Source of the DNA: a virus
Taxonomy: Duplodnaviria; Caudoviricetes
Reading direction: 5' to 3' (one strand)
IMG/VR virus record: IMGVR_UViG_3300042337_000069
Span: 1-55,218 of that record
Length of the DNA stretch: 55,218 nt
Part shown: piece after piece, positions 6,963 to 24,790 of the stretch
How the letters are laid out: each line of letters starts with the position of its first letter
How positions within the stretch are numbered: position 1 is the stretch's first letter
Made by a program: the position numbers and the translations under genes
Notes under the pieces: generated by a model
What the model was told of the DNA's origin: nothing
The model's input: the letters and a program-made list of their open reading frames with translations, nothing else
Database searches by the model: none

Positions 6963-8066
6963 GTGAAAAAGACAACTACCGTTCGTCGGCCGAAATTCGC
7001 TGATGAAAAGTACCTCGGCCCGGAACCCACCGTGACCGAGGAATCGACTCAGGTTGATATGTCTAATGCCTACACATGGTTCAATTACTTCTATAACTCG
7101 GAGGACGCTAAGTCCTTCACTCTCTCCTACCTTAAGTCTATCAAGTATGACAAAGACACAATTAAGAAACTGTCAAAAGCAAAGCCAATCGATCTACACA
7201 ACATTGGATGGAACTGTCGGCTCCTTGCAGGCGGGTCCATTCTCCCTGATAATGGTTGGGAAAGGGTCGAGCAACGTATTAAAGCAGTTGCAGACTCAAT
7301 CACAATCGTTGATGAAATTGAAGAAGATGGCCCTGTCCTAAAGGTCATCTCAATTCAAGATCGTATCAATAACAAAGCGTCTGACCTGATCGGTGAACTG
7401 GAAGAACAGATGGACGTTTTCTTCAAAGAAGGAGTCGTTCAATTTGACGTTAAGAAGTGGTCCCTTGAGAAGGGAATTAAACCGCAAATTGCGAAGAGGA
7501 TTGCAGAACACTTCCGTCCTCAATACGAAGAAATCACCCAAGCCATCGAAGGCAAAGACAAAGAGTTGGCTGAGTCATATAAGTGCTGGCGTAAGCCGGT
7601 TCTTAAGATCATGGTTCTTTTCATAAAGAGAATCATTGATCATATGATTGAACTAGATTCAGCGGGGCAGGCTGTTCGTAAGCCACGTGCCAAGAAGGTA
7701 AAGCCTGCTGGACAGTTGGTCGCTAAAATGAATTACTGCAAGTCTGCTGATACTCTAACGAGTGTCGAACCAAAGGAGATTATCGGTGCTTCACAGCTTT
7801 GGGTCTATAATCATAAGACTCGCAATCTTTCTGTTTATAATGCCGTGGGTCATTCGGGGCTTAGTGTCCGAGGGACTACCATTACAGGATATGATGAAGC
7901 TACTTCTATCACGAAGAAACTTCGTAAACCAGAAGCAGTAATCAAGCCGCTGCTTGAAGGCGGTAAGATTTATCTTCGCAAGGTGATGGAGAATATCACT
8001 ACGAAGGAAGCAGCGGCTAATGGTCGTATCAATGCAGAAACAATTCTATTGAGAGTAGTAAAATGA
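6963..8066 (+). CDS. conserved T4-like phage hypothetical protein
   Basis: Long ORF; GTG start after AAGGAG; IIGASQLWVYN and KKLRKPE C-terminal motifs. Confidence 0.75.
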   Translation: MKKTTTVRRPKFADEKYLGPEPTVTEESTQVDMSNAYTWFNYFYNSEDAKSFTLSYLKSIKYDKDTIKKLSKAKPIDLHNIGWNCRLLAGGSILPDNGWERVEQRIKAVADSITIVDEIEEDGPVLKVISIQDRINNKASDLIGELEEQMDVFFKEGVVQFDVKKWSLEKGIKPQIAKRIAEHFRPQYEEITQAIEGKDKELAESYKCWRKPVLKIMVLFIKRIIDHMIELDSAGQAVRKPRAKKVKPAGQLVAKMNYCKSADTLTSVEPKEIIGASQLWVYNHKTRNLSVYNAVGHSGLSVRGTTITGYDEATSITKKLRKPEAVIKPLLEGGKIYLRKVMENITTKEAAANGRINAETILLRVVK

Positions 8067-8203
8067 CAGAGGAAACAATTCACACACTAATATTAACGTG
8101 GGTATATGCAGGAGTTGGTGCTGCTGTGTTTAGCCTCGTCCTCCTATTCGCAGTAATGTATTATACAAACAAAGAGAAGAATAATGACAGAGAAGGTAAT
8201 TGA
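8063..8203 (+). CDS. small single-TM protein
   Basis: Hand-translated MTEETIHTLILTWVYAGVGAAVFSLVLLFAVMYY... Confidence 0.55.
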   Translation: MTEETIHTLILTWVYAGVGAAVFSLVLLFAVMYYTNKEKNNDREGN

Positions 8204-8585
8204 GTTTCCTAAGCATAAGGTTGTAAGAGATGTGCCTGGTGCTGTATTAGAAGAACGCAATAGGCGTGCTGATCAAAAGATGGCAGATAGCATTGTCGAT
8301 GAATTGACTGGAATGATCATAACCGAACTAGATAATTATTATGTTGAGGTTGAAAACAAGCAGTTTGCTAAAGACCTGGTTTTAGTTGCCGATTCTATCA
8401 AGGCTTGTGTCTATCGTTCTTTCGGACTAGACCATCATCTGCATCCCTTTATCGACGATAATGTTAAACTGATTGAAGGTGATGTTTCCTCGATGTCAAA
8501 GGAAGAGATTAAGGAAAAAATCGAAACCATTATGAGCGAACTATCACAAGCAAAAGAAAAACTTGACACTGACGAGGAAGAGTGA
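8184..8585 (+). CDS. hypothetical protein
   Basis: 133-aa ORF starting with a KVIEFP motif. Confidence 0.7.
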   Translation: MTEKVIEFPKHKVVRDVPGAVLEERNRRADQKMADSIVDELTGMIITELDNYYVEVENKQFAKDLVLVADSIKACVYRSFGLDHHLHPFIDDNVKLIEGDVSSMSKEEIKEKIETIMSELSQAKEKLDTDEEE

Positions 8586-8591
8586 TAGAAT
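8563..8591 (+). promoter_or_regulatory. sigma70-type promoter for rnh
   Basis: TTGACA-17-TAGAAT with extended TG. Confidence 0.6.
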
Positions 8592-8617
8592 ATAATTCAC
8601 TCAATAAGGAATAAATC

Positions 8618-9514
8618 ATGTCTTACATGTTGATTGACCTCAACCAGGTTCTAATCTCAAATCTAATGCAGTATCTCACTAGAAACCCAACATACGTTGA
8701 TGCCAACGGTGTTACCGTAAAGGCTTCTAGTTCTAATATCAATGAGAATATGATTCGCCATATGTGTATCAATACCATTCGCTCTAATGTGAAGCAGTTT
8801 CGCTCCAAGTATAAGAATGTGGTTCTCTGCTGCGACTCCAAGCACTATTGGCGCCGTGATTACTTCCCCTTCTATAAGGCGCATCGTAAGCATGACCGAG
8901 AGGCATCAGGTCTTGATTGGGATATGATCTTTTCTGTCCTTAATCGACTTCGTGACGAACTGCGAGACAACTTTCCGTATAAAACACTTAACATTGAGGG
9001 TGCCGAGGCCGACGATGTTATTGCTGTGCTTACTGCTCGACTTGCTCCACATGGGGATATTCTTATTCTATCATCTGACAAAGACTTTGGCCAGTTGCAG
9101 AAGTATCCTAATGTCAAGCAGTATTCTCCTATCCTAAAGCGTTTCATTCAGATCGATGATCCGCAGCGTTTTGTGCGTGAGCATATTCTAAAGGGTGATC
9201 GTGGTGATGGCATTCCTAATTTTCTATCTGCCGATAATACATTCGTTGCAGGTGAACGCCAGAAACCTCTTAGCAGTAAGAAACTGAATGAATGGGTTAC
9301 GCAGGATACGTCTAAGTTCTGTACCACAGATAATCTACTACGTGGATTCATGCGTAATCAAACACTTGTTGATTTCGACTATATACCTAGCGAGATTCAG
9401 GCCAACATCGTTACAGCATTTGACGAAGCAAAGCCTGCAAGCAAAGAGAAGATGCTAAACTACTTTATCGATAAGGGTCTTAAGGTTATGATCGAATCGA
9501 TAAGTGACTTTTGA
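8618..9514 (+). CDS. rnh: T4-type RNase H (5'-3' exonuclease)
   Basis: LIDLNQ, WRRDYFPFYK, EADDVIA, SSDKDF, KGDRGDGIPN. Confidence 0.92.
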   Translation: MSYMLIDLNQVLISNLMQYLTRNPTYVDANGVTVKASSSNINENMIRHMCINTIRSNVKQFRSKYKNVVLCCDSKHYWRRDYFPFYKAHRKHDREASGLDWDMIFSVLNRLRDELRDNFPYKTLNIEGAEADDVIAVLTARLAPHGDILILSSDKDFGQLQKYPNVKQYSPILKRFIQIDDPQRFVREHILKGDRGDGIPNFLSADNTFVAGERQKPLSSKKLNEWVTQDTSKFCTTDNLLRGFMRNQTLVDFDYIPSEIQANIVTAFDEAKPASKEKMLNYFIDKGLKVMIESISDF

Positions 9515-9521
9515 GGATAAC

Positions 9522-9953
9522 ATGGCAATCAAAAACATTTACGAAGTCCTTAACGAGTTTAAGGCAGTGAAGACTAAACAAGAAAGGATCGACGTTTTAC
9601 GAAAGAACGATTCTTGGGCGCTCAAGATGGTGCTACAGGCAATCTTTCATCCGAACGTCAAGTTTAATGTCAAAATTCCTGACTATAATAAAATCGATGT
9701 GCCGCCAGGTATGTCATATAATCACATGACCGATGCTCTACAGAGAGCGTATCTGTTTCAAGAAGGTCACCCTAAAACACCACCAGCACTGACCGACAAG
9801 CGCCGAGAAGAAATCCTTATTCAACTTCTCGAATCTCTTGAGCCACCGGAAGCAGAAGTTTTTGCTAACATGCTACGAAAGGATTTGAAAGTTCCATATC
9901 TAACTCAGGCACTAGTGAATGAAACGTTCCCCGGAATACTACCGCAATCGTAA
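9522..9953 (+). CDS. conserved T4-like hypothetical protein
   Basis: KRREEILIQLLESL motif; position after rnh. Confidence 0.7.
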   Translation: MAIKNIYEVLNEFKAVKTKQERIDVLRKNDSWALKMVLQAIFHPNVKFNVKIPDYNKIDVPPGMSYNHMTDALQRAYLFQEGHPKTPPALTDKRREEILIQLLESLEPPEAEVFANMLRKDLKVPYLTQALVNETFPGILPQS

Positions 9954-10323
9954 AAGACTGAAAAACCTAACGTATGATACCGACAACTTCAATACTACAA
10001 TTGACGATATTCATATATGGTTTGATATCCTTAACGAACAGTTGTTCGGTAACAAGTTGCAACCATTTGGTAAAATCTCGCTTAAGCGCCATAAAAATGT
10101 TCATGCGTTGTTTCATTATTGGCCTCGCAAGGAGAACAAGCCAACAATGCTGGAGATTAATCGAAAGTTTGAGAATAAAAAATTCTTTGTCGAAATCCTG
10201 GCACATGAGATGGTTCATCTGTTTCAATACCAATATAATGAACCACTAGGACACGGACCGTCGTTCTTCGTATGGAGTGACAATTTTTATCTCAAAGGGT
10301 TAAAACTACAAAAGGCATCATGA
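9919..10323 (+). CDS. SprT-like zinc metalloprotease
   Basis: ILAHEMVHLFQY...HGPSF (HExxH plus distal H). Confidence 0.8.
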   Translation: MKRSPEYYRNRKRLKNLTYDTDNFNTTIDDIHIWFDILNEQLFGNKLQPFGKISLKRHKNVHALFHYWPRKENKPTMLEINRKFENKKFFVEILAHEMVHLFQYQYNEPLGHGPSFFVWSDNFYLKGLKLQKAS

Positions 10324-10324
10324 C

Positions 10325-10522
10325 ATGAAAAACAAGTCTCCTTCTCTCAAGAATGATCCTCTATATGCAGAGCTATATGAAGAGGACAAAAAATATGGCG
10401 GCAAGCGCCTTGAAAGGCCGCAAACCGAAGTTAATAAGAAGAGACCTTTAAAGAATTTAAAAAAAGCATGGATGGAGCATCTAGAGGACTTTGATGAAGT
10501 GGACGACTTCTATGAGCATTAA
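10325..10522 (+). CDS. hypothetical protein
   Basis: Charged 65-aa ORF. Confidence 0.65.
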   Translation: MKNKSPSLKNDPLYAELYEEDKKYGGKRLERPQTEVNKKRPLKNLKKAWMEHLEDFDEVDDFYEH

Positions 10523-10552
10523 CTAAATTAGAATTGTCTAATATTTGACTTA

Positions 10553-10609
10553 GATCAATTCCTTTATAAAACAATCACTTATAAAAACTCCTTTTAAATC
10601 AAACACTTA
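10553..10609 (+). promoter_or_regulatory. cluster of IHF-like sites
   Basis: AATCAAACACTTA (10597-10609) fits WATCAANNNNTTR; near matches at 10569-10581 and 10553-10565. Confidence 0.4.
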
Positions 10610-10610
10610 G

Positions 10611-10633
10611 AGGTGCGACATTTTGTCGCACCT
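10611..10633. repeat. palindromic promoter-associated element, copy 1
   Basis: AGGTGCGACA-TTT-TGTCGCACCT followed by a T-run. Confidence 0.85.
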
Positions 10634-10650
10634 TTTTTCGCATTTTTCCC

Positions 10651-10679
10651 TTGCGTTTCTCTCCGAATCGTCCTATATT
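10651..10679 (+). promoter_or_regulatory. early sigma70-type promoter
   Basis: TTGCGT-17-TATATT downstream of the palindrome. Confidence 0.6.
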
Positions 10680-10685
10680 ATATGC

Positions 10686-11009
10686 ATGATGATTCGCAAA
10701 CGGAAAACTCGCTCAGATCGCAATCACGTTATCTATAGCTTGGCTATTGGTAAGCGTGAGTATATCGGTGTCACGGTTGTCAATGACCGCTCGCCCACTA
10801 AATCGCTTAAGCGTCGCTGGCAGAAGCATGTTCAGCGGGCTTACGCCGAAGACAAAGGTTGGAAGCTGTCGCTTGCCATTGTCAAGTATGGTCCCGAAGC
10901 GTTCACAGTTGAGGTTGTTCAAGTCGTCCGTGGCAAAGCTGAAGCTCATAAGATAGAGCGTGACCTTATCCGTATCCGCAAGCCTAAGCTTAACACTGAT
11001 GTTAGGTAG
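10686..11009 (+). CDS. GIY-YIG-like endonuclease (early)
   Basis: VIYSL...EYIGVT, RWQKH, E..LI...P.LN; start moved to ATG 10686. Confidence 0.75.
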   Translation: MMIRKRKTRSDRNHVIYSLAIGKREYIGVTVVNDRSPTKSLKRRWQKHVQRAYAEDKGWKLSLAIVKYGPEAFTVEVVQVVRGKAEAHKIERDLIRIRKPKLNTDVR

Positions 11010-11011
11010 GG

Positions 11012-11057
11012 TGCGACAAAATGTCGCATTGACTATCGTTCCGTGTCGTGCTAAGAT
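11012..11057 (+). promoter_or_regulatory. palindrome copy 2 plus early promoter
   Basis: TGCGACA-AAA-TGTCGCA abutting TTGACT-17-TAAGAT (extended TG). Confidence 0.8.
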
Positions 11058-11082
11058 ATGTCAAGAATCGTGAAAGGAATAT

Positions 11083-11313
11083 ATGATGTCGAATGCTCGC
11101 TTCGCTAACAAGGGTCTTCTCAAATCCGACCTTAATACTCTTAATGCCCTCATTAACTATTTTGAGAATGGCGGCACTATCACTGTTTGTAAGGCCGGTA
11201 AGCGTTCTAAGGCTAACACTTCGTTCCCGAATATTCACGGTACAGTTTCCCATCGTGGTGCTAAATCCGAAACTCTTCGCAATTCTGGGATAGTATCTCA
11301 CAAGAAAGGCTGA
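11083..11313 (+). CDS. early hypothetical protein
   Basis: AAGGA RBS; YFENGGTITVCK motif. Confidence 0.7.
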   Translation: MMSNARFANKGLLKSDLNTLNALINYFENGGTITVCKAGKRSKANTSFPNIHGTVSHRGAKSETLRNSGIVSHKKG

Positions 11314-11316
11314 TAA

Positions 11317-11409
11317 ATGAAAAATCGCTTCTATATCTTTCTAATGGAAAATTTTGAAGCGGTATCCGACTTTATCGCTTTTCAAGCTGTCACTAAACTG
11401 GGAGTATAA
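11317..11409 (+). CDS. small hypothetical protein (30 aa)
   Basis: MKNRFYIFLMENFEAVSDFIAFQAVTKLGV. Confidence 0.5.
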   Translation: MKNRFYIFLMENFEAVSDFIAFQAVTKLGV

Positions 11410-11411
11410 GT

Positions 11412-11543
11412 ATGGTCGTCTTCTATTCGATGTGGTATGATCCCATGCATATGAAATACACTTTCACTCGTTATCTCGGAAATCTCATCCTTGACGATGT
11501 TGATATCTCGTATTGGGCTGTTCCTGGAACTCTGGAGGATTGA
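11412..11543 (+). CDS. microprotein of the PGTLED array, unit 1
   Basis: MVVFYSMWYDPMHMKYTFTRYLGNLILDDVDISYWAVPGTLED. Confidence 0.65.
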   Translation: MVVFYSMWYDPMHMKYTFTRYLGNLILDDVDISYWAVPGTLED

Positions 11544-11545
11544 TT

Positions 11546-11692
11546 ATGAATAAGCCGAGAAAGATTATCTCAGGATCATTCTCATATGTTGCAAAAGTCT
11601 CTCGTCAGTATTATATTCTGGGTTGGAGAATCGTAAAGCAGAATCGCTGGTCTGATGGTAAGTGGACTCTTGTTATCGAACTGGAGGATTGA
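11546..11692 (+). CDS. microprotein, array unit 2
   Basis: MNKPRKIISGSFSYVAKVSRQYYILGWRIVKQNRWSDGKWTLVIELED. Confidence 0.65.
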   Translation: MNKPRKIISGSFSYVAKVSRQYYILGWRIVKQNRWSDGKWTLVIELED

Positions 11693-11694
11693 TT

Positions 11695-11814
11695 ATGGTT
11701 ATCTATTACACTCGCTGGCTCAATCTTTTTGTTACTGATTACATTATCAGCGATGTGAAGCCATATAGCTGCGATGCATCCTGGTGGATTGTTCCTGGAA
11801 CTCTGGAGGATTGA
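11695..11814 (+). CDS. microprotein, array unit 3
   Basis: MVIYYTRWLNLFVTDYIISDVKPYSCDASWWIVPGTLED. Confidence 0.65.
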   Translation: MVIYYTRWLNLFVTDYIISDVKPYSCDASWWIVPGTLED

Positions 11815-11923
11815 TTATGATCGTTGTATATTACGCTCCCTGTTTTAACGTTTTTTCTGTTACTGGTTATAATTTCAGCGATGTGAAGCCATATAGCTGC
11901 GATGCATCCTGGTGGATTGTTCC
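11747..11923 (+). repeat. 49-bp exact direct repeat (11747-11795 / 11875-11923)
   Basis: TCAGCGATGTGAAGCCATATAGCTGCGATGCATCCTGGTGGATTGTTCC occurs twice, period 128. Confidence 0.95.
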
Positions 11924-11942
11924 GGGTACTCTGGAGGACTAA
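11817..11942 (+). CDS. microprotein, array unit 4
   Basis: MIVVYYAPCFNVFSVTGYNFSDVKPYSCDASWWIVPGTLED. Confidence 0.65.
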   Translation: MIVVYYAPCFNVFSVTGYNFSDVKPYSCDASWWIVPGTLED

Positions 11943-11943
11943 T

Positions 11944-12111
11944 ATGTTTCTTTTGTTTGCTGGTGATATCTACTACCCCTGTGGTGGTTGGGAAGACTAC
12001 CGTGGTGTGTATGGTTCGGTAGAATTGGCCCGTGCGGCGGTTCAAGAAATGGAAGTAGAATGGTGGCATATAGTCGATGCTGCGGCTGGTCGTATAGTTG
12101 AGGAAGGATAA
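11944..12111 (+). CDS. small phage protein (YYPxGGWED type)
   Basis: Start moved to ATG 11944 after GGAGG. Confidence 0.75.
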   Translation: MFLLFAGDIYYPCGGWEDYRGVYGSVELARAAVQEMEVEWWHIVDAAAGRIVEEG

Positions 12112-12114
12112 ACC

Positions 12115-12318
12115 ATGTTCGTCTATATCGTATTCTATCATATAGCGTATGAGGGAGAATATGTTGAGGGAGTATTCTCATCCTACGATAAGGCTCGTTC
12201 ATTCGAGTTGGAATTGATCGCCAAGAGGGAGATAACGAGAGCCTCTGAATCAACCAGCATTTGTAAGGTTGAGGTGGATAAGGATTATGGGATGAATGGT
12301 GTAGGAGAAGAAGTATGA
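12115..12318 (+). CDS. hypothetical early protein
   Basis: VYIV...YEG...GVFSS motif; RBS. Confidence 0.7.
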   Translation: MFVYIVFYHIAYEGEYVEGVFSSYDKARSFELELIAKREITRASESTSICKVEVDKDYGMNGVGEEV

Positions 12319-12419
12319 TTGACACTGACAAGTTTGTCCAAATGGTCGCACTGGCTGTAGTTTCCGTGGGTCTTACGGTCGGTGTTCTGCTAATCGCTTA
12401 TCTCGATGGAGGTATGTAA
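12315..12419 (+). CDS. small membrane peptide
   Basis: MIDTDKFVQMVALAVVSVGLTVGVLLIAYLDGGM; AGGAG RBS. Confidence 0.55.
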   Translation: MIDTDKFVQMVALAVVSVGLTVGVLLIAYLDGGM

Positions 12420-12592
12420 TGGCCGAAGTAAAAGTTGTTCTTCGTAGAGGCAAAGGTGATCGTTCAAAATATCTTTATGCAAATGTCTATGATGCTAATA
12501 CGGGTGAAATCCTGATCGCAGCGGATGCTGAGTATGTAATTCAATCACTCAAAGAACACAAGCACACAATCGTTGACCTGGAAATGGAGTAA
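12419..12592 (+). CDS. hypothetical protein (57 aa)
   Basis: GGAGG RBS; MAEVKVVLRRG... Confidence 0.6.
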   Translation: MAEVKVVLRRGKGDRSKYLYANVYDANTGEILIAADAEYVIQSLKEHKHTIVDLEME

Positions 12593-12596
12593 TCAA

Positions 12597-12737
12597 ATGA
12601 GCGTTACCATCCGCTTGGACGGCTTTCCGCTTTATGCTTTCGTGTCTGAGTGGATGGTCTTTTGCACCTTCGTTGGTGCGTGTGTCCTCTATTTTATTCT
12701 TCGTAACTACGGTTCTGTGAGGTATACAAATGGCTAA
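12597..12737 (+). CDS. small membrane protein
   Basis: GGAG RBS; hydrophobic core. Confidence 0.5.
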   Translation: MSVTIRLDGFPLYAFVSEWMVFCTFVGACVLYFILRNYGSVRYTNG

Positions 12738-12888
12738 TGTAAAAACATTTTCATTCAAAGTGTTTTATCATAATGGTGATCTAGCAAAAGTTTTCACTGG
12801 TCTATCTCGGGTTGCTCTAATCCGTTATAGAAACTGGTATCACAATCTGCCGGAAGTGTCGGCAACCGTAACAACAGAGGAAGAATAA
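12730..12888 (+). CDS. hypothetical protein (52 aa)
   Basis: GAGG RBS; MANVKTFSFKVFY... Confidence 0.55.
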   Translation: MANVKTFSFKVFYHNGDLAKVFTGLSRVALIRYRNWYHNLPEVSATVTTEEE

Positions 12889-12889
12889 G

Positions 12890-14113
12890 ATGGGTTTTCA
12901 GTTCGTAGGTGGTCAGGGTCGTGCGCCGCTAAAGATGTGGTGTGATGGTGTCGAAGTCGAACATGATGCTCGCACCCAGTTAGAGAACATAGCGTCCCTG
13001 CCGTTCATTTATAAGCATGTGGCGGTTATGCCGGACGTTCACTTGGGTAAGGGTGCAACGGTTGGTTCTGTTATTGCTACGAAGGGTGCTGTTGTTCCCG
13101 CCGCTGTCGGTGTCGATATCGGTTGTGGTATGATGGCTGTTCGTTTGTCACTGACGGCGAATGATTTACCCGACGATCTTTCTTCGCTGCGTTCTCATAT
13201 AGAGTCCGTAGTGCCGCATGGTCGCACCGACAACGGTGGAAAGAATGATCGTGGAACTTGGGGTGTTGTGCCGCAGAAGGTGATTGGTCAGTGGAATCGT
13301 TTAGCTGATCGCTATGCGAAGATTGTCGAAAAGCACCCGAAGATCGCTTCGCATAAGACGGCGGAGTTTATGGGTACCCTGGGAACGGGGAACCACTTTA
13401 TCGAGTTGTGTCTTGACGAGGACGACTGTGTGTGGGTAATGCTGCACTCTGGTTCTCGTGGTGTTGGCAACAAGATTGGTACGTATTTCATTGAAGCTGC
13501 GAAGCGTGAAATGGAGCGTTATCATATCCTGCCGTATCTGCCGGATCAGGACTTATCCTATCTTGTAGAGCATACGACCCTGTTTGATGATTATGTGGAG
13601 GCTGTATCCTGGGCACAGGAGTTTGCTGCTCTCAACCGTCAGGTGATGATGGATGCGGTGCTTGACGTTCTGCGTCAGCGTTTGCCGCTGTTTGTTGTCT
13701 CTGATGATCGTGCGGTGAACTGTCATCACAACTATATTGAAAAGGAGAACCACTTTGGTGCTAACGTTCTCGTAACCCGTAAGGGTGCGGTTCGTGCCCG
13801 TGCTGGCGATCTTGGTATCATACCGGGGTCAATGGGAACTGGTTCTTTTATCGTTCGTGGTAAGGGTAACCAGGAGTCGTTTTGTTCATGTTCTCATGGC
13901 GCTGGTCGTCGTATGTCCCGCACGGCGGCACGTAAGGCAATCACGCTAGAAGATCATATCAAGGCGACCGAGGGTATCGAGTGCCGTAAGGATGCTGATG
14001 TGATTGACGAGTCGCCGGCTGCTTACAAGGATATCGGTGCTGTCATGGCAGCGCAGGACGACCTTGTGGAAATCGTGCATCGTCTTCGTCAGGTCCTGAA
14101 CGTGAAGGGGTAA
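12890..14113 (+). CDS. rtcB: RtcB 3'-phosphate/5'-OH RNA ligase
   Basis: MPDVHLG, VGVDIGCG, GTLGTGNHFIE, HSGSRG, HHNY, PGSMG, SHGAGR, DESPAAYK, NVKG. Confidence 0.96.
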   Translation: MGFQFVGGQGRAPLKMWCDGVEVEHDARTQLENIASLPFIYKHVAVMPDVHLGKGATVGSVIATKGAVVPAAVGVDIGCGMMAVRLSLTANDLPDDLSSLRSHIESVVPHGRTDNGGKNDRGTWGVVPQKVIGQWNRLADRYAKIVEKHPKIASHKTAEFMGTLGTGNHFIELCLDEDDCVWVMLHSGSRGVGNKIGTYFIEAAKREMERYHILPYLPDQDLSYLVEHTTLFDDYVEAVSWAQEFAALNRQVMMDAVLDVLRQRLPLFVVSDDRAVNCHHNYIEKENHFGANVLVTRKGAVRARAGDLGIIPGSMGTGSFIVRGKGNQESFCSCSHGAGRRMSRTAARKAITLEDHIKATEGIECRKDADVIDESPAAYKDIGAVMAAQDDLVEIVHRLRQVLNVKG

Positions 14114-14189
14114 AGCAGAAGCGTAGCAATAACTGTTAGCGAGGACTTAACCATACCAATCACCGACGGTGAGAGAGGAGCAAAAGAGC

Positions 14190-14369
14190 ATGGGTACCCC
14201 GTCTAAACACCGAAAGAGCACCACCGGTGCTGCCAACCCTGTCGCTTTTGCCCTTAAAAGCGGGCAATTCAGACAGCGAATAGTCAAGTCCAAGGTTAAA
14301 TATAACCGTAAGCGTGACCATAAGGGGTGCGACAATCTGTCGCACCCTTTTTTGTATTTTTCCTATTGA
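14190..14369 (+). CDS. ArfA-like alternative ribosome rescue factor candidate (59 aa)
   Basis: GGAG RBS; NPVAFALKSGQFRQRIVKSKVKYNRKRDH resembles the ArfA core as recalled ([32 protein letters not shown]); hydrophobic C-tail. Confidence 0.6.
   Translation: MGTPSKHRKSTTGAANPVAFALKSGQFRQRIVKSKVKYNRKRDHKGCDNLSHPFLYFSY
14325..14353 (+). terminator. intrinsic terminator / palindrome copy 3, inside the ArfA-like ORF
   Basis: GGGTGCGACA-ATC-TGTCGCACCC-TTTTTT, ending 13 nt before the TGA at 14367. Confidence 0.75.
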
Positions 14370-14394
14370 CCTTTCCGTTCCTTCGTGCTAAGAT
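14366..14394 (+). promoter_or_regulatory. early sigma70-type promoter
   Basis: TTGACC-17-TAAGAT; shares CGTGCTAAGATATGT with the promoter at 11029-11057. Confidence 0.75.
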
Positions 14395-14421
14395 ATGTTC
14401 ATAATGATGAAAGGAACCCAT

Positions 14422-14673
14422 ATGAAACTCAATCCCATCTCCACTAATCAGACCGAACTTGAAATTGGCAAGGGTGTTGTCGTTTTCTTCTCTTATAAGA
14501 CTCCTGTTGCTGCCTTTGTGCCTGGTGCTGGTTATCTTCGCACGAATCATAAGTGGTCTCGCACCACTTCGAAACATATCAATCAGTGGCTCCGTCGTAT
14601 GACTGGCACCGCTTCTCCCACTCTTACAGAAGTTGATCAGTCGGTTCTCGACACTCTCGTTGGAGGTATCTAA
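14422..14673 (+). CDS. conserved early phage protein (FSYxTPVA...SRTTSKH type)
   Basis: AAAGGA RBS; motif seen in early proteins of T4-like phages. Confidence 0.75.
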   Translation: MKLNPISTNQTELEIGKGVVVFFSYKTPVAAFVPGAGYLRTNHKWSRTTSKHINQWLRRMTGTASPTLTEVDQSVLDTLVGGI

Positions 14674-14674
14674 T

Positions 14675-14851
14675 ATGTTTTTATTCTATTATGTCGATAA
14701 AAACGGTGAGCGTCATTCTTTTAATCAACTGTCGGAAAGAATGGCAAAACAAATGTATAAGGTCTTTCTTCGTGAAAGCGGTATACATGGTTATAAACAA
14801 ATAGGCTGGCAAAAAGAAGATGGTTCTTATGCCACGGGAACAACCTGCTAA
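14675..14851 (+). CDS. hypothetical protein
   Basis: GGAGG RBS. Confidence 0.65.
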   Translation: MFLFYYVDKNGERHSFNQLSERMAKQMYKVFLRESGIHGYKQIGWQKEDGSYATGTTC

Positions 14852-14863
14852 AGGAGATATCTA

Positions 14864-15082
14864 ATGCGTAAATATACGAATAAGATTATCGAAATGGTCG
14901 ATGAAGGTTCTCTGGATCGTGATACTCTTATCCGTGACTTGCTCATGTGGATGAGTGAGTATGATGTGGAAGAGTTTTATGATCGTAATCTTAATGATGA
15001 TGAGGACGAAGACGAGGAGGACGATTATGACGGCCAGCCGTCCGAAATGGACGAGTGGCACGACTTCGATCCAGACTGCTAA
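14864..15082 (+). CDS. acidic hypothetical protein
   Basis: AAGGAG RBS; C-terminal DGQPSEMDEWHDFDPDC. Confidence 0.75.
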   Translation: MRKYTNKIIEMVDEGSLDRDTLIRDLLMWMSEYDVEEFYDRNLNDDEDEDEEDDYDGQPSEMDEWHDFDPDC

Positions 15083-15154
15083 TAGTCTATAGAAAGGGTA
15101 GACTATTGAATAGTCAAGCCAGAGGTAGACTACTCTACCATTTCTATAGACTAT
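15082..15154. repeat. nested inverted repeat
   Basis: ATAGTCTATAGAAA...TTTCTATAGACTAT (14 bp) enclosing GACTATT-G-AATAGTC and GGTAGA-CTAC-TCTACC. Confidence 0.8.
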
Positions 15155-15223
15155 GGGTGCGTCATCGTGTCGCACCCTAACCGGGATATTTCCCTTGACT
15201 CCTTCCCAAAAGTGTCCTATTAT
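15155..15223 (+). promoter_or_regulatory. palindrome copy 4 plus early promoter
   Basis: GGGTGCGTCA-TCG-TGTCGCACCC, then TTGACT-17-TATTAT. Confidence 0.8.
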
Positions 15224-15256
15224 AGATCATAAAGTGAAAAGCGAGGTCTTAACAAT

Positions 15257-15808
15257 ATGGCTAATCTGACTATCTCCCCCACTATCGTCAAGGCGCTTCA
15301 AGTTATCAAGTTGAATGTTCCTGTTACTCCGACTGAAATTAATGATCATGTCGGTGATGGCGACTATGCTTCTAAACATGTCTGGTATCTCGGTAAGCTC
15401 GGCTTCACTGTGACAAAGCAGAAAGACGGCCGCAAGGTTTCGTCTTATACTTTGATCGCAGAACCCGAAAATGCCGAAGCAATTCGCAACACTATTCACG
15501 GCGCTGCCCGTAAGGCGGCCGCCCCCAAGGCACCCAAAGCGCCTAAGGCGACTAAAGCGCCCAAGGTTGTTGCTCCCAAGAAAGCGGCGACTAAGACTGC
15601 TGCTCCCAAGAAGGTTGCTGCCAAGAAGTCGGTTGCCGAAATCAAGGCTGCTAATCTCGCTAAACTCAAGGCTGTCGGTGCTAAGTTCAAGGCCGATCGT
15701 CCCATGACCGATGCGGATATTCTTCGTGACGAGCCGAAGGCTACCACTTTCTCGCTCGACGGTGATTGGGATTCTATCGACGGTCTCGATCTTTCGAAAC
15801 TTATCTAA
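15257..15808 (+). CDS. putative DNA-binding protein: wHTH-like N-terminus plus histone H1-like Lys/Ala/Pro repeats
   Basis: APKAPKAPKATKAPKVVAPKKAATKTAAPKKVAAKK; acidic C-terminus. Confidence 0.7.
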   Translation: MANLTISPTIVKALQVIKLNVPVTPTEINDHVGDGDYASKHVWYLGKLGFTVTKQKDGRKVSSYTLIAEPENAEAIRNTIHGAARKAAAPKAPKAPKATKAPKVVAPKKAATKTAAPKKVAAKKSVAEIKAANLAKLKAVGAKFKADRPMTDADILRDEPKATTFSLDGDWDSIDGLDLSKLI

Positions 15809-15819
15809 TAGGTGACTTG

Positions 15820-16173
15820 ATGCATCTCAAGGTAAAGGTCAAAAACCCAGAATATCCGTTTCGGCATCGCTATGCGAGTTATGTCGTTATTCCTGAGTTC
15901 AATACCTATATCGGACAGGTCGTCAAGTCAAAGCCGAAAGGCATATCAGATAAGCAATTCATGCTTACAACCGGAGACTATGAATCTCCGGTTCGTATTC
16001 TGGAGAAAGACTCGATTGTAGAGGCTTGGGTCAATCGTTCGAAGTGTCAAACAAATGTCCATATCATCGAAGATAAGTATGTGGTGACGCAAGGTCCTCT
16101 CAATCGTTATTCTTGCACTTGCACCGCATATCATTATCGTCGTCGTTGTTCCCACATAGATGGAGTGAAATAA
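15820..16173 (+). CDS. SWIM zinc-finger protein
   Basis: CTCTAYHYRRRCSHI. Confidence 0.75.
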   Translation: MHLKVKVKNPEYPFRHRYASYVVIPEFNTYIGQVVKSKPKGISDKQFMLTTGDYESPVRILEKDSIVEAWVNRSKCQTNVHIIEDKYVVTQGPLNRYSCTCTAYHYRRRCSHIDGVK

Positions 16174-16361
16174 TGCGCTGGTTCTTTGAATATATGTTCC
16201 CCGTCGTATTCGGTCTCATGCTTGTGTTTGTATTCGGCATGATTGGTGTCAATATGTATCTCGGGTATCAGTGTTACAAGTCTAATGATCCGACTAGCAC
16301 TGCCTGTTTTATGGTGACTGCTAATCAACAGACTATCAACCTGAATCAGAGGATGCAGTAA
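16173..16361 (+). CDS. small membrane protein
   Basis: Hydrophobic N-half; GGAG RBS. Confidence 0.6.
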   Translation: MRWFFEYMFPVVFGLMLVFVFGMIGVNMYLGYQCYKSNDPTSTACFMVTANQQTINLNQRMQ

Positions 16362-16564
16362 TGATGTATTATGTTCTTCACTTTGATAAAGGTGAATTTG
16401 TAATTCACCCGACTGCTGAAAAGGTTGCTACCTACCTTTTAGGTAAATCTGTCAATCATGTTATAATCTTCAAGGCTATTCCTGAATTTGTTGGTGCAAA
16501 GATATATATTCCTTCTGACGGTGATGTGACAAAGATTCAAGAGGAATTGGAGGCTCTATTATGA
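16361..16564 (+). CDS. hypothetical protein
   Basis: Coupled ORF. Confidence 0.65.
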   Translation: MMYYVLHFDKGEFVIHPTAEKVATYLLGKSVNHVIIFKAIPEFVGAKIYIPSDGDVTKIQEELEALL

Positions 16565-16749
16565 CGTTTTTCTATTCAAGAAATCCTGAGAAGGCGCTTG
16601 TTGAAGTGAAAGAACATTTGTTTGAACGTCTCAACATTCTTCGTCAGTGTCTTGGTCCTTCAGATGAATATGGAGATGATGTCCAGAACCAAATGCGTAA
16701 TGAGATATCCTTTCTGGAAGATATGCTTGATATGATGGAGCGGAGTTAG
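16561..16749 (+). CDS. hypothetical protein
   Basis: GGAGG RBS; coupled ORF. Confidence 0.65.
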   Translation: MTFFYSRNPEKALVEVKEHLFERLNILRQCLGPSDEYGDDVQNQMRNEISFLEDMLDMMERS

Positions 16750-16750
16750 T

Positions 16751-16894
16751 ATGGAACGCTTTCATTGGAACGGCAGCAAAGAAGTTCGCCGCAAGTATTG
16801 GTACCGAGGTAAGCGAAGACAGTTCTGGCATTGGGGTTATGACTGGTATCATTATCTTCTGCAAGATGCTCATGATCGGAGACCTATAAAGTGA
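16751..16894 (+). CDS. small aromatic/basic protein (47 aa)
   Basis: MERFHWNGSKEVRRKYWYRGKRRQFWHWGYDWYHY...; GGAG RBS. Confidence 0.45.
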   Translation: MERFHWNGSKEVRRKYWYRGKRRQFWHWGYDWYHYLLQDAHDRRPIK

Positions 16895-18003
16895 CACACC
16901 ATCACAAGCTGTATAAGATCGACTCCAACGGCAACACCCGTGTTTGGTGGATTGAATATGACAATGAGAAATATCGCACTCACTCTGGCATTGATGGCGG
17001 TAAGATCGTTGTTTCTGGTTGGCAGTATCCTACTGAGAAGAATGTTGGCCGCTCGAATGCGACCACTGTAGCGGAACAGGTGCTTGCTGAGATTGGGTCT
17101 GAGTATATAAAGAAGATGCATCAGGGTAAATATCACGCCACGAAAAATGCAACTGCAAAGGGTGCTGGCTTCATTGAATGTATGCTGGCTGACAAATATA
17201 ATCCTAAGAAGCATACCAACTTCCCTTATTACTCACAGCCTAAGTTCGATGGTGTTCGCTGTCTCGTTTCTAAAGACGGTATGCAGTCACGCAATGGCAA
17301 GCCTATTGTATCTGCTCCGCATATTCATGAACAATTGGAGTCATTCTTCAATGTGTTTCCTGATGCCGTGCTTGATGGCGAGTTGTATAATCATGATCTA
17401 AAACATGACTTTGAAAAGATCATCTCGCTCGCTCGTAAGACAAAGCCGACTAAAGAGGATCTGGAAGAATCAAAAGAAATGATTCAGTATCATGTGTATG
17501 ATATTGTTGATCCTACAATGACCTTTGCAGAACGCAATACATTTCTACACAATGTATATGGATTCTGGTGTAAGATGATTCAGCCAGTCTCGACTGTCAA
17601 AGTGAATGACGAGGAAGAGATTCAATCTTATCTTGGAGCGTGTCTCTCTGAGGGATATGAAGGTATGATGCTTCGTGATCCCGAGGGATATTACGAGGGT
17701 AAGCGTTCAAAGGGTTTGCTCAAACATAAGGAGTTTGAGGATGCCGAGTTTCGTATCGTTTCTATCGTAGAAGGAAATGGTAACTGGGCTGGTCGTGCAA
17801 AGTCTATCGAGATTGCTCTTCCTGACGGAACGACTCAGTTTTCCGGAGTGCGTGGGTCATTTGACAAACTCGAAGAAGTGCTGTATAATGCTGATTCGTA
17901 TGTCGGCACTGATGTTACCGTGCGGTATCAGAACAAGACGGAAGACGGTAAACTGCGCTTTCCCGTAGTCGTTGCATTCTGGAAAGGTAAGCGTGATGTC
18001 TAA
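16891..18003 (+). CDS. ATP-dependent DNA ligase
   Basis: QPKFDGVR (adenylated Lys), LDGELY, YDIV, EGMMLR, KRSKGLLKHK, LRFP. Confidence 0.93.
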   Translation: MTHHHKLYKIDSNGNTRVWWIEYDNEKYRTHSGIDGGKIVVSGWQYPTEKNVGRSNATTVAEQVLAEIGSEYIKKMHQGKYHATKNATAKGAGFIECMLADKYNPKKHTNFPYYSQPKFDGVRCLVSKDGMQSRNGKPIVSAPHIHEQLESFFNVFPDAVLDGELYNHDLKHDFEKIISLARKTKPTKEDLEESKEMIQYHVYDIVDPTMTFAERNTFLHNVYGFWCKMIQPVSTVKVNDEEEIQSYLGACLSEGYEGMMLRDPEGYYEGKRSKGLLKHKEFEDAEFRIVSIVEGNGNWAGRAKSIEIALPDGTTQFSGVRGSFDKLEEVLYNADSYVGTDVTVRYQNKTEDGKLRFPVVVAFWKGKRDV

Positions 18004-18199
18004 TGATATCGTCTATTACAAACTGGTAAAAGAGACCATTCCATATAATCCTGATGCTTTTGTGACTGCTGCTGTCTGGTCGTGTGCGCTTTGTGATGAA
18101 ACTATTAGCGGTCATAGTGGTCCTGGATGTGGTGAGATTTGTGTTCAATGTGCTATAGATATTCGTTCAAATAAATTAAAATACAAGAGGGAACTATGA
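17996..18199 (+). CDS. small zinc-binding protein
   Basis: CALC...CVQC. Confidence 0.6.
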   Translation: MSNDIVYYKLVKETIPYNPDAFVTAAVWSCALCDETISGHSGPGCGEICVQCAIDIRSNKLKYKREL

Positions 18200-18378
18200 C
18201 CGACGAAACGTTCACTTTTACAAAAGAAATGATATCGTGCGCTCTGGTGGCGAATGGATACTATACTCTATGGAATGAGGACAACTGGGTGCCACCGGAT
18301 TCTAAGAATCCTGACTGGGCAGGTATGTCTATGATGGAAGCATTCAAATCCCTTCTCCGTAAAAAGAATATGGCGTAA
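18196..18378 (+). CDS. hypothetical protein
   Basis: AGAGGGAACTATGA junction. Confidence 0.7.
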   Translation: MTDETFTFTKEMISCALVANGYYTLWNEDNWVPPDSKNPDWAGMSMMEAFKSLLRKKNMA

Positions 18379-18392
18379 AAAAAGAGGGAACT

Positions 18393-18587
18393 ATGAATCA
18401 TATTGAAAGACTCGAACACGACCGTATAAACGCCCGCTTTGATGCTTTAGAAAAGCGTATCAACGAACTAGAACAGAAATGGAAAGATCAAGAAACTGAA
18501 ATAAGCGTAGGATGCACTAATCTGGTGACGAAAGATTATCTTGACCAAGAAATTTCTTGGCGCCTACGTTCATATAAACATAAGTGA
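18393..18587 (+). CDS. coiled-coil hypothetical protein
   Basis: AGAGGGAACTATGA junction. Confidence 0.7.
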   Translation: MNHIERLEHDRINARFDALEKRINELEQKWKDQETEISVGCTNLVTKDYLDQEISWRLRSYKHK

Positions 18588-18596
18588 GAGGGAACT

Positions 18597-18806
18597 ATGA
18601 TCATTGAAAAGACAATCACTCAAACTGTGCAAGTAGATGTATATTGCCGTCCTATGCACTGGGCAGTTGTTACAGTGCCGTTATCAGGTTATCCTGATAA
18701 TCCATATGTGATGGCACAGTTTCATTCTGAGACAGATGCTAAGTTCTTTGTGGATAACCTTCCGCCTCAGGGTCTAGAAGTGAGAAAGATTGTTTCTCAT
18801 GACTGA
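18597..18806 (+). CDS. hypothetical protein
   Basis: AGAGGGAACTATGA junction. Confidence 0.7.
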   Translation: MIIEKTITQTVQVDVYCRPMHWAVVTVPLSGYPDNPYVMAQFHSETDAKFFVDNLPPQGLEVRKIVSHD

Positions 18807-18969
18807 TGAAGATAAAGATAGAGAAATTTTTGAAATATTGATGGCACATTATGGATTTCGAGATGTTGTGCTTTGTCTTCAAGGTGCGGCATTTCGTTTC
18901 CGTGCTTATCATGATGGTGGTTGGCTTGAAGGATATCGATCTGATCCTGTGATCTACTGGGGTGCATAA
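18799..18969 (+). CDS. hypothetical protein (56 aa)
   Basis: Hand-translated MTDEDKDREIFEIL...YWGA; overlaps both neighbours. Confidence 0.5.
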   Translation: MTDEDKDREIFEILMAHYGFRDVVLCLQGAAFRFRAYHDGGWLEGYRSDPVIYWGA

Positions 18970-19133
18970 TGCTTGACTCTCTTCGTCAAATCGCATATAA
19001 TGAAGGTTATGAATGTTGTGCGGAAAACATTCTATATCTTTCCGATAATCCGTATGTTGGTGTGTCCGACGAACTTGCTCACATGTTCAGTGAAGGTTGG
19101 TGGGATGCATTCTATGAGGACCTCGAAAAATGA
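18969..19133 (+). CDS. Rmf/CrpP-like small protein (54 aa)
   Basis: AYNEGY...NPY...FSEGWWDA pattern; coupled to the next gene. Confidence 0.5.
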   Translation: MLDSLRQIAYNEGYECCAENILYLSDNPYVGVSDELAHMFSEGWWDAFYEDLEK

Positions 19134-19675
19134 ATATCTTCTATATCCATAGTAATCCTAAACTCTGTGCCGAGTGGGCTGTTGACAAGCATGTGGTCAA
19201 GATGATTCTTGAAGCGGCACAGTTGCTTTCTACGGCGCATCGTGTGCTTGATGGCATCGAGTATATTGACGCATCTTCTGGTCGTAAGATCAAGCGTTGG
19301 CGTCTACCTGATAATCGTGATACAGAAATGTATTCAGCCACGCATATCAATCATCCAAGTGCTGTGTGGGTCCGTCAGTCCAATCACAACTACAACTGGC
19401 TTTGGTGTTATCTTCATGAGCATTGTATTGAATACACTCGTCGTTATGGCAAGAAGCATAAGGTTGAGACAAGCGGTCTATTGAATGTTCTGTCACAGCC
19501 GCCACGCAACATTCCTATTGCTCATAAGACGCAACCACCAAGTGCGATGGACGCTAAATATATCATTAGCGAAGACTCTATAGTGAACTATCGCAACTAC
19601 TACAAGGTTGGCAAGGCGCATCTTCATTCATGGAAGGCGCCTGCTACGCCACCAGACTGGATTATGGAGAACTAA
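19130..19675 (+). CDS. pyrimidine-dimer DNA glycosylase / endonuclease V-like protein
   Basis: MNIF..., DKHVVKMILEAAQLLSTAH, THINHPSAVW, EYTRRYGKKH. Confidence 0.8.
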   Translation: MNIFYIHSNPKLCAEWAVDKHVVKMILEAAQLLSTAHRVLDGIEYIDASSGRKIKRWRLPDNRDTEMYSATHINHPSAVWVRQSNHNYNWLWCYLHEHCIEYTRRYGKKHKVETSGLLNVLSQPPRNIPIAHKTQPPSAMDAKYIISEDSIVNYRNYYKVGKAHLHSWKAPATPPDWIMEN

Positions 19676-19869
19676 TGCCCACATATTCGTTCAAGTCAAA
19701 AGATACTGGCGAGACATTTGACATTTTTATGGGAGTGTCTGAATTAGATCAGTTCATGGAAGATCATCCAGAATTTGAAAAACTTTTGTCTGCACCACAT
19801 TTTCTCGGTACCAACATGAATGGCGGAATGCTAAATAACAAAACATATGATCCAAAGGATAATGCATAA
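19675..19869 (+). CDS. FmdB-like small protein, paralog 1
   Basis: MPTYSFKSKDTGETFD... Confidence 0.65.
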   Translation: MPTYSFKSKDTGETFDIFMGVSELDQFMEDHPEFEKLLSAPHFLGTNMNGGMLNNKTYDPKDNA

Positions 19870-20132
19870 TGCCTAATTACACATGGTGCCATAAAGAGAC
19901 TGGCGAAGAACACACAAACACAATGACGATTGCAGAGCGTGACGAATACGAGAAGAACAATCCGCATCTTCGTCAAGTTCTGCGTAACTTTACAATGTGT
20001 GATCCTGTGAATATTGGCGTCACCAAGCCGCCAAGTGATTTCCAAAAGTATATTCTTGGTCGTGTCAAGGCTTCTGTACCACAAGCAGATGCAGTAGCGA
20101 GCAAGCGTTGGGACATTCCTAAGGAGGTCTAG
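19869..20132 (+). CDS. FmdB-like small protein, paralog 2
   Basis: MPNYTWCHKETGEEH...NPHL; upstream of phoH. Confidence 0.7.
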   Translation: MPNYTWCHKETGEEHTNTMTIAERDEYEKNNPHLRQVLRNFTMCDPVNIGVTKPPSDFQKYILGRVKASVPQADAVASKRWDIPKEV

Positions 20133-24299: not shown

Positions 24300-24490
24300 T
24301 AAAAGAACTGATCATACTGGCGCAGGTGGCTAATACAATTCCTCCTACTGACATTATGAGAAATGACACTCCGACTTATTCATGGGAAAGGCCAACACAG
24401 CCACCGAGATATCAAGTTCCCGCAACTGGTATTTACTCGGCAGGATCTAGACCTCCTCCGATTTCGTTTGAAGAGGTTGAAGTAGAATAA
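24296..24490 (+). CDS. hypothetical Pro-rich protein
   Basis: Coupled ORF. Confidence 0.5.
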   Translation: MIKELIILAQVANTIPPTDIMRNDTPTYSWERPTQPPRYQVPATGIYSAGSRPPPISFEEVEVE

Positions 24491-24496
24491 ATAGAA

Positions 24497-24790
24497 TTGC
24501 CAAAGGTCGTTGAGAGACGAAACATAGGTTTCTTGGACGTGGGTGCGATTCCCACCGTCTCCACCATAGATACATCGTAAAGATTGCCGATTAATGATCG
24601 TATATCGCTTAGGTACCATAAGCACGATGTATCTTTGATGGGGACGAACAGGTTCGACAGGATTCAGTAAGGTCGTAAGGAGACTGTAGGCATTTATAGG
24701 TGCAGCAAATGATAACGCACCTTACGAAATGGCTCTAGCAGCTTGATCGTTTGGGTATGGGTTCCACCTCGAAACAGAACGGGCCCACTA
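24497..24790 (+). ncRNA. ssrA: circularly permuted (two-piece) tmRNA
   Basis: T-arm GTGGG-TGCGATT-CCCAC and 3' CGTCTCC-A-CCA (ends 24566) come before the 5' strand GGGGACG (24640), giving G3.U70; tag frame 24702-24746 reads AANDNAPYEMALAA*; outer ends approximate. Confidence 0.93.

Follow-up and report, generated by a model that had tools for sequence, protein, structure and literature searches.

A 59-codon open reading frame (ORF) of a phage genome fragment, lying just 3' of rtcB at positions 14190-14369 (+ strand), appears to encode a short-loop protein of the ArfA superfamily, from a phage branch overlapping with the family DUF7230, and its homology to ArfA is well supported by sequence comparison. 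The fragment is the 55,218-bp IMG/VR virus record IMGVR_UViG_3300042337_000069, and this whole stretch of analyzed DNA is referred to as the window. ArfA is known as a back-up of trans-translation in some proteobacteria, while phage copies have been noted only in passing, as annotations. The evidence as a whole is best explained by a divergent, short-loop ArfA-type rescue factor made from a non-stop message and exposed to tagging by transfer-messenger RNA (tmRNA), an explanation that we hold to be evenly poised between right and wrong.

The arfA-like ORF is a real gene, as indicated by its homologues together with core differences that are mostly synonymous. The homologues include metagenomic proteins of 60-83% identity and more distant ones, and the family alignments delimit a conserved core, N16-R42 (NPVAFALKSGQFRQRIVKSKVKYNRKR; 14235-14315, + strand). 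Over a core of 26 codons, the differences from four relatives are mainly synonymous; in comparison with one of these loci, L009, there are 9 synonymous and 3 non-synonymous codon differences, and third positions account for 11 of the 14 base changes, the pattern of purifying selection. An earlier reading of the same DNA, made without database searches (the sequence-only reading), had given the ORF as 14190-14369 with 59 amino acids, quoted its core and placed it 76 nt after rtcB, all of which is borne out by the sequence. In PHROGs, the ORF matches only two families of unknown function.

The match to ArfA emerges from profile-profile comparison. When the alignment of 21 members of the phage family was compared by hhalign with an alignment of 18 enterobacterial ArfAs only, the probability was 71.4% (E 3.6e-5), with a 3-residue gap at the KGKGS loop; when eight phage ArfAs, each over the Pfam ArfA cut-off, were added to the latter, so that the ArfA side was made of Enterobacteriaceae and phage sequences, the probability rose to 95.7% (E 8.5e-9, 39 columns). 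These eight proteins are among those found by tblastn of E. coli ArfA against GenBank phages, which returned 17 records; in three, the annotation reads alternative ribosome-rescue factor. Direct BLASTP of the ORF against E. coli ArfA (K-12 record) gave 8 of 20 residues identical, with E 0.004.

Intermediate sequences join the two families. A protein of Pseudoalteromonas phage J2-1 exceeds the cut-offs of both ArfA (41.3 bits against 25.5) and DUF7230 (28.6 bits against 27) over overlapping residues, and this Pfam ArfA-positive protein has the same short loop as the window ORF. The protein of Caulobacter phage Cr30 combines the NPIAKALR N-terminal half of the phage family with a canonical KGKGSF loop, and the viral contig L050 has an N-terminal half as in Cr30 ArfA but the short loop DKTKYNRKKK in place of KGKGSFTRKGK. 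In the ESM Atlas, moreover, the nearest named clusters to the window ORF are DUF7230, and among curated families, too, this phage family is the closest to the ORF.

Several results weigh against this kinship. Neither the Pfam models for ArfA and DUF7230 nor NCBIfam matched the ORF at E up to 1, so that neither the gathering score of PF03889 (25.5 bits) nor the cut-off of DUF7230 (PF23876; 27 bits) was reached, and PF03889 found 0 matches at E up to 10 in the six frames of the window record. No PDB chain was matched by phmmer with the ORF or by the family profile. Among the 21 family members, Pfam ArfA is touched by a single one (E 0.074) and DUF7230 by five (best E 1.1e-4). The ORF has the basic stretch, yet the KGKGS loop is three residues shorter than in ArfA, a caveat that the sequence-only reading had itself raised; and H44, which aligns with H45 of the ArfA KH motif, is not conserved in the relatives. 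Profile searches, which that reading had proposed, gave a divided answer: for the ORF, curated models and PDB chains yield nothing, whereas profile-profile comparison of its family matches ArfA.

With the curated models silent on the ORF, the aligned region short and the pairwise scores weak, it could be argued that there is no kinship at all and that the product is a generic small, basic nucleic-acid-binding protein, alike to ArfA merely in being rich in lysine and arginine. This was put to a control of 100 column shuffles of the combined ArfA alignment. As the shuffles keep composition and yet scored 8.5 ± 2.3 on average and 17.4 at most, compared with 44.6 for the real alignment (11.5 when reversed), richness in lysine and arginine does not explain the match. 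Intermediates over both Pfam cut-offs, and the pair L050 and Cr30, alike in one half and exchanged in the other, also speak against a chance likeness, which is disfavored and very improbable. Taken together, the profile match, the shuffle control and the bridging sequences place the ORF in the ArfA superfamily, and the relationship claimed in the sequence-only reading is upheld. Should DUF7230 consist of short-loop ArfAs, a function open to testing would be at hand for an entire family of uncharacterized small phage proteins, and the shorter loop would serve as a natural experiment on the way in which ArfA detects that the mRNA channel is empty.

The part of the ORF that is best conserved corresponds to the part of ArfA that engages release factor 2 (RF2). 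According to the excerpted text of one account, ArfA residues F25 and Q27-E30 add a strand to an RF2 sheet, and the basic C-terminus fills the mRNA channel redundantly (PMC8012679). Residues F27-R28-Q29-R30-I31-V32 of the ORF align with ArfA F25-E30 and are nearly invariant, forming the best conserved stretch of the family. It is proposed that the basic C-terminal half (KSKVKYNRKRDHK) would probe the empty mRNA channel of a ribosome stalled at a broken mRNA 3' end, and that the conserved F-R-Q-R-I-V strand would recruit host RF2, leading to peptide release. Rescue activity through RF2 is a reasonable inference from these sequence features. A complex prediction with E. coli RF2 (RF2_ECOLI) and the family alignment scored 0.01 (mark, 0.32), which is not evidence either way.

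The same region bears on another possibility, that the protein is an ArfA-derived ribosome binder used for take-over, which would occupy the A site or the empty mRNA channel and block host tmRNA-SmpB or ArfA, or hold ribosomes, with no productive activation of RF2. In the alignments, NPVAFAL replaces ArfA NAIEALL, so that the position of ArfA A18 is not conserved, and the excerpted text of PMC8012679 reports that the change A18T kills RF2 activation; the shortened mRNA-channel loop would fit as well. On the other hand, no part of the family is better conserved than the RF2-pairing strand FRQR[IV], the NP[VI]A form of the N-terminus is common to Pfam-positive phage ArfAs, and a phage with its own canonically tagged tmRNA is unlikely to block trans-translation. 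A take-over role is accordingly considered unlikely.

The way in which the factor is expressed may also resemble that of known factors. Ahead of the stop codon, the ORF contains a candidate intrinsic terminator (14325-14353, + strand), which consists of a 10-bp G+C-rich hairpin, GGGTGCGACA-ATC-TGTCGCACCC (14325-14347), followed by six T (14348-14353). The hairpin has a folding energy of -21.2 kcal/mol (z = -6.1), a stability reached by 0 of 200 shuffles, and it is the strongest terminator-like site within 8000-20000; the TGA stop comes 14 nt past the T-run. The hairpin and T6 reported by the sequence-only reading are thus confirmed, at the level of sequence only. With T6 and -21 kcal/mol at this copy, termination before the stop is physically expected, and the usual 7-9 nt rule predicts RNA 3' ends near 14354-14356 and a product of about 54-55 amino acids from a message without a stop codon.

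Such an arrangement has precedents. In the excerpted text of PMC8012679, both arfA and brfA are under the control of trans-translation: arfA has a stem-loop at which transcription terminates or RNase III cuts, and in brfA a rho-independent terminator precedes the stop codon. By analogy, the phage mRNA probably ends at the strong terminator ahead of the stop codon, and the factor would be made from this non-stop message as a peptide of about 54-55 amino acids. It would be open to tagging by the tmRNA of the host or of the phage itself, and would build up mainly once trans-translation is saturated, as is known of arfA and brfA. We infer RF2 recruitment, non-stop expression, tmRNA gating and a role against host RNases; gating by trans-translation is plausible, and would be physically expected of this copy's terminator, but evolutionarily unsettled.

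The likeness to ArfA (YhdL, PF03889) extends from a small basic protein with an N-x-[IV]-x-x-x-L ... F-R-Q-R-[VI] core followed by Y-x-R-K to a stem-loop within the ORF before its stop, which in arfA leaves the mRNA with no stop, and, by prediction, an active form of about 55 amino acids. The differences are that the gene here is phage-encoded, that its KGKGS loop is shorter and the ORF has no Pfam match, that the tail after the hairpin has only about 5 residues rather than about 17, and that the hairpin is at the same time a repeated promoter-associated element. The excerpted text likewise describes Bacillus subtilis BrfA as a rescue factor that depends on RF2, with trans-translation controlling its gene and a terminator preceding the stop codon. 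No sequence relation of BrfA to the phage ORF was found; according to the same text, the KH motif is the only notable similarity of ArfA and BrfA (PMC8012679).

How far the pre-stop position of the terminator is peculiar to this gene was assessed in about 399 kb, comprising the window and two complete relatives, G001 and G002. Under stringent criteria, 18 terminator-like sites were counted. At 14 of them, an ORF of 35 or more amino acids ends ahead of the hairpin or, in one case, within the 5' arm. Only two sites have an ORF of 35 or more codons that reads through: one is the arfA-like site, and the other also has a 79-aa ORF that stops 14 nt upstream. The arfA-like site is therefore the sole strong terminator among the 18 whose only ORF found reads through.

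The hairpin belongs, as the sequence-only reading had cautioned, to a repeated palindrome associated with promoters. The palindrome GTGCGACAnnnTGTCGCAC occurs in the window at 10613, 11011, 14327 and 15157, compared with 0.15 copies expected by chance, and each copy lies just 5' of a promoter-like site. At the three other copies, which are given without strand, the upstream ORF ends before the palindrome: at 10613-10631, T6 is present, a -35-like hexamer follows 19 nt downstream, and the upstream ORF stops 89 nt before; at 11011-11029, the palindrome has no T-run and abuts TTGACT, with the upstream ORF stopping at 11009; and at 15157-15175, again with no T-run, it lies upstream of TTGACT-17-TATTAT, with the upstream ORF stopping at 15082. 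At the arfA-like gene, the promoter-like site (TTGACC-17-TAAGAT with a TG extension; 14366-14394, + strand) serves the next gene (14422-14673, PHROG 5643), and the TGA stop of the ORF (14367-14369, + strand) lies inside its -35 hexamer TTGACC.

There is an alternative explanation, in which the ORF encodes an ArfA-family factor with ordinary expression. The palindrome would serve the downstream promoter as an operator or activator site, the ORF would merely enter the hairpin, and the protein would come from read-through transcripts or be a truncated, unregulated product, so that gating would not be selected. The evidence that weighs against a selected non-stop design comes from the palindromes, from the relatives and from the mechanism of termination itself. 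The three genomes hold 14 copies of the palindrome (four in the window, four in G002 and six in G001), which are tied to promoters more than to T-runs: a -35-like hexamer lies 9-20 nt downstream in 11 of the 14 and a twelfth abuts TTGACT, compared with a T-run in only 7. The element looks like, first of all, a putative protein-binding site upstream of early promoters that may sometimes double as a terminator. As it is promoter-linked and generic, its conservation needs no arfA-specific reason; and as the canonical palindrome contains no stop in any frame of this strand, an ORF that enters it reads through by default. Furthermore, a ribosome translating through a hairpin may suppress termination.

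Among the 15 relatives that carry the hairpin, the end of the protein drifts. The ORF runs past the T-run in five. In seven, it stops at or just after the stem, with the DNA of L001 and L007 having TAG within the T-tract, and a stop placed there would sit at the very 3' end of the terminated RNA. In the other three, including the complete phage G002, which also has a tmRNA, the stop falls inside the 5' arm, giving ends in KGV or KEV. A wider survey was given 45 loci, of which five (L021, L026, L060, L061 and L074) were dropped for want of an anchor motif; among the 40 scored loci, which include many near-duplicate rows, the stop lies after a perfect hairpin in 4, inside it in 2 and before it in 5, and 29 have no hairpin of at least 7 bp, although three of these 29 carry a mismatched form of the window hairpin. 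Normal ends are found in Ac42, ZZ1, HMO-2011, J2-1 and Cr30, and in most phage ArfA-like genes likewise.

The opposite weight is carried by the window copy, with its T6, its stability and its standing as the only strong terminator read through by its sole ORF, and by more distant phages in which a pre-stop hairpin is specific to the gene. In the Sinorhizobium phages phiN3 and phiM12, a different 11-bp hairpin with T6 precedes the stop of the ArfA-like homologue, and the jumbo Agrobacterium phage Atu_ph07 has a phiN3-type hairpin with no T-run; in each of the three genomes this hairpin is single-copy. Between phiN3 and Atu_ph07, codons for the same residue are identical in 5 of 5 cases in the stem and in 5 of 15 outside it (Fisher p = 0.016), or in 8 of 8 cases when three flanking codons are added to the stem (p = 0.003). 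Frozen stem codons point to selection on the nucleotide sequence. In Citromicrobium phage RXM, too, the annotated ArfA gene contains a hairpin of 11 bp, located 53 nt ahead of the stop, and encodes a hydrophobic tail.

A pre-stop hairpin is thus, as far as the sequences indicate, recurrent in some lineages and no family-wide rule. The expectation that homologues would keep a pre-stop terminator holds for some relatives, phiN3, phiM12, Atu_ph07 (with no T-run) and RXM, and fails for G002, Ac42, Cr30, J2-1 and most others. On balance, ordinary expression is regarded as possible yet rather doubtful, and the non-stop, tmRNA-exposed design is retained as the working explanation. As to the palindrome itself, its 8-3-8 form looks like the putative binding site of a dimeric regulator of an early promoter set.

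The phage also encodes a tmRNA of its own. A permuted, two-piece tmRNA lies at 24464-24789 (+ strand) and was found both by Rfam (tmRNA_permuted, RF04321, 95.2 bits with a cut-off of 47; alpha_tmRNA, 59.7 bits with a cut-off of 50) and by ARAGORN. Its tag frame, ANDNAPYEMALAA, taken from the aligned sequence, ends in ALAA, and the tmRNA tag suggests an alphaproteobacterial host. Most alphaproteobacteria are not known to carry arfA. Both complete relatives have a permuted tmRNA with an ...ALAA tag as well (93.8 and 62.5 bits; L081:1464-1800 and L082:925-1674); the copy in G001 measures about 660-750 nt and may hold an insertion. No SmpB gene and no gene with an RF-1 domain were found in the window, G001 or G002, so that host partners would be needed. 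The permuted tmRNA, like the published annotations of phage ArfAs, had been missed in the sequence-only reading. A tmRNA as a general companion of phage arfA-like genes was considered and rejected, as outside this clade a permuted tmRNA exceeds the cut-off in one of five records (Bambus) and a standard one in none of five others.

On a broader and more tentative view, which we would rather doubt than endorse, the clade may possess a layered rescue kit, with the phage tmRNA acting first, a self-gated ArfA-like factor behind it and, in some members, RtcB to reseal severed RNAs, and DUF7230 would be the phage branch of ArfA, sustaining translation against host defense nucleases that cleave mRNA or tRNA. 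The range of DUF7230 would then take in T4-like, jumbo and marine phages, with alphaproteobacterial phages among them. A phage with a tmRNA, a possibly self-gated ArfA-like gene and RtcB would represent a compact system, and raises the question of whether ribosome rescue serves as counter-defense against abortive infection that cuts RNA.

The gene for RtcB, an RNA 3'-phosphate ligase of 407 amino acids (12890-14113, + strand), is identified by PHROG 1075 (tRNA splicing ligase) and by a full-length match to Pfam RtcB (PF01139; 431.2 bits, model positions 1-426 of 426), and its start overlaps the stop of a preceding 52-aa ORF. The 76-nt spacer between it and the arfA-like ORF (14114-14189, + strand) ends in a strong Shine-Dalgarno sequence, GAGAGAGGAG, 8 nt before the ATG. 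A scan for terminator-like sites found none in this spacer; co-transcription is therefore likely, and the arfA-like gene is probably transcribed together with rtcB. The sequence-only reading went further and proposed a module of the two genes, for which the support is graded weak. rtcB lies directly 5' of the arfA-like gene in the window and in L001-L007, seven near-identical loci of 88-91% identity, but it is not beside the gene in L008 and L009 and is absent from the whole of the complete relative G002. A fixed rtcB-arfA module is accordingly rejected.

The pairing nevertheless recalls the RtcB2-PrfH operon, in which, according to the excerpted texts, the gene of an RtcB ligase is paired with that of a ribosome-rescue factor (PMC9304027, PMC9223846, PMC13166195). 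Here too, an RtcB ligase gene adjoins a gene of the ribosome-rescue type. In contrast to that operon, the partner is ArfA-like and not a release-factor homologue, the window RtcB scores 127.3 bits with TIGR03073 (release_rtcB), below the cut-off of 271.8, and the pairing is lost in G002 and L008. Other pairings of an ArfA-like factor with RNA-repair or stress genes were seen in Caulobacter phage Cr30, where the ArfA homologue (L023:1465-1614) lies about 420 nt 5' of an annotated RNA ligase gene (2036 onward), and in phiN3 (L015), where the homologue lies two genes 5' of a RelA/SpoT family gene.

Phage-borne ArfA is already in print as annotation, and it is the short-loop variant that is new. 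In the excerpted texts, g10 of Citromicrobium phage vB_CbaS-RXM (PMC8953757) and gp30 of pelagiphage HTVC027P (PMC12753301) are annotated as ArfA; together with the proteins of Brevundimonas phage Bambus and J2-1, these are phage-borne homologues, many of them in alphaproteobacterial phages. RXM shares the pre-stop hairpin and the hydrophobic tail with the window gene, but most of the annotated phage ArfAs differ in having the KGKGS loop and in exceeding the Pfam ArfA cut-off, and none is described, in the excerpted texts, with rtcB or tmRNA or as the product of a non-stop mRNA. The short-loop form NP[VI]A ... VVK.K..Y.RK is shared with DUF7230 as represented by p003 of Acinetobacter phage Ac42 (51.6 bits); the window ORF, in contrast, gives no match to that model, and in Ac42 and ZZ1 the stop is normal, followed by the terminator or by no terminator at all. 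A jumbo-phage survey treats RtcB and ribosome rescue, with neither 'ArfA' nor 'tmRNA' in its main text (PMC7824862). In a literature search of main texts, no work came up that tests a phage ArfA functionally or reports a non-stop design in phages, nor was there any mention of DUF7230.

The window, judged to be about one third complete, carries markers of T4-like phages, namely RNase H, DNA ligase, gp59, gp32, a T4 baseplate protein, PhoH and ribonucleotide reductase. The relatives of the phage are contigs of 169-174 kb, and the sequencing runs that contain the stretch are DNA runs of lake and freshwater metagenomes. Megablast of 12700-14700 against GenBank phages gave no match.

The gene is unannotated or misnamed in several GenBank phages. 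In Salmonella phage Arash, gp99c (L018:1417-1641) is annotated as 'ribosomal protein L2', yet it scores 69.6 bits with Pfam ArfA and shares 63% identity with E. coli ArfA across residues 4-41. ArfA- or DUF7230-like ORFs are unannotated on their strand in pf16 (L021), RsoM2USA (L026), Cr30 (L023), ORM_20 (L016), OLIVR5 (L087), Atu_ph07 (L017) and HMO-2011 (L089); the records of pf16 and RsoM2USA place a gene on the opposite strand instead. In ORM_20, OLIVR5 and IC12, no stop intervenes before the ORF has run some 90-100 nt into a convergent gene. Roseobacter phage CRP-212 has an ArfA-like ORF (L024:1489-1611; Pfam ArfA, 33.3 bits) in another frame of the 3' part of the large annotated gene gp38, suggesting either an overlapping gene or an over-extended annotation of gp38.

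Upstream of rtcB, the window also contains four tandem small ORFs of about 43-59 amino acids (11412-11948, + strand), with the ending ...VPGTLED in three and ...VIELED in the fourth. Between them recurs a 36-nt junction of the CTGGAGGATTGATTATG type, in which a Shine-Dalgarno sequence, a stop and the start of the following ORF are combined; a pair of 90-nt copies shares 90% identity, and the same ending is found in L009.

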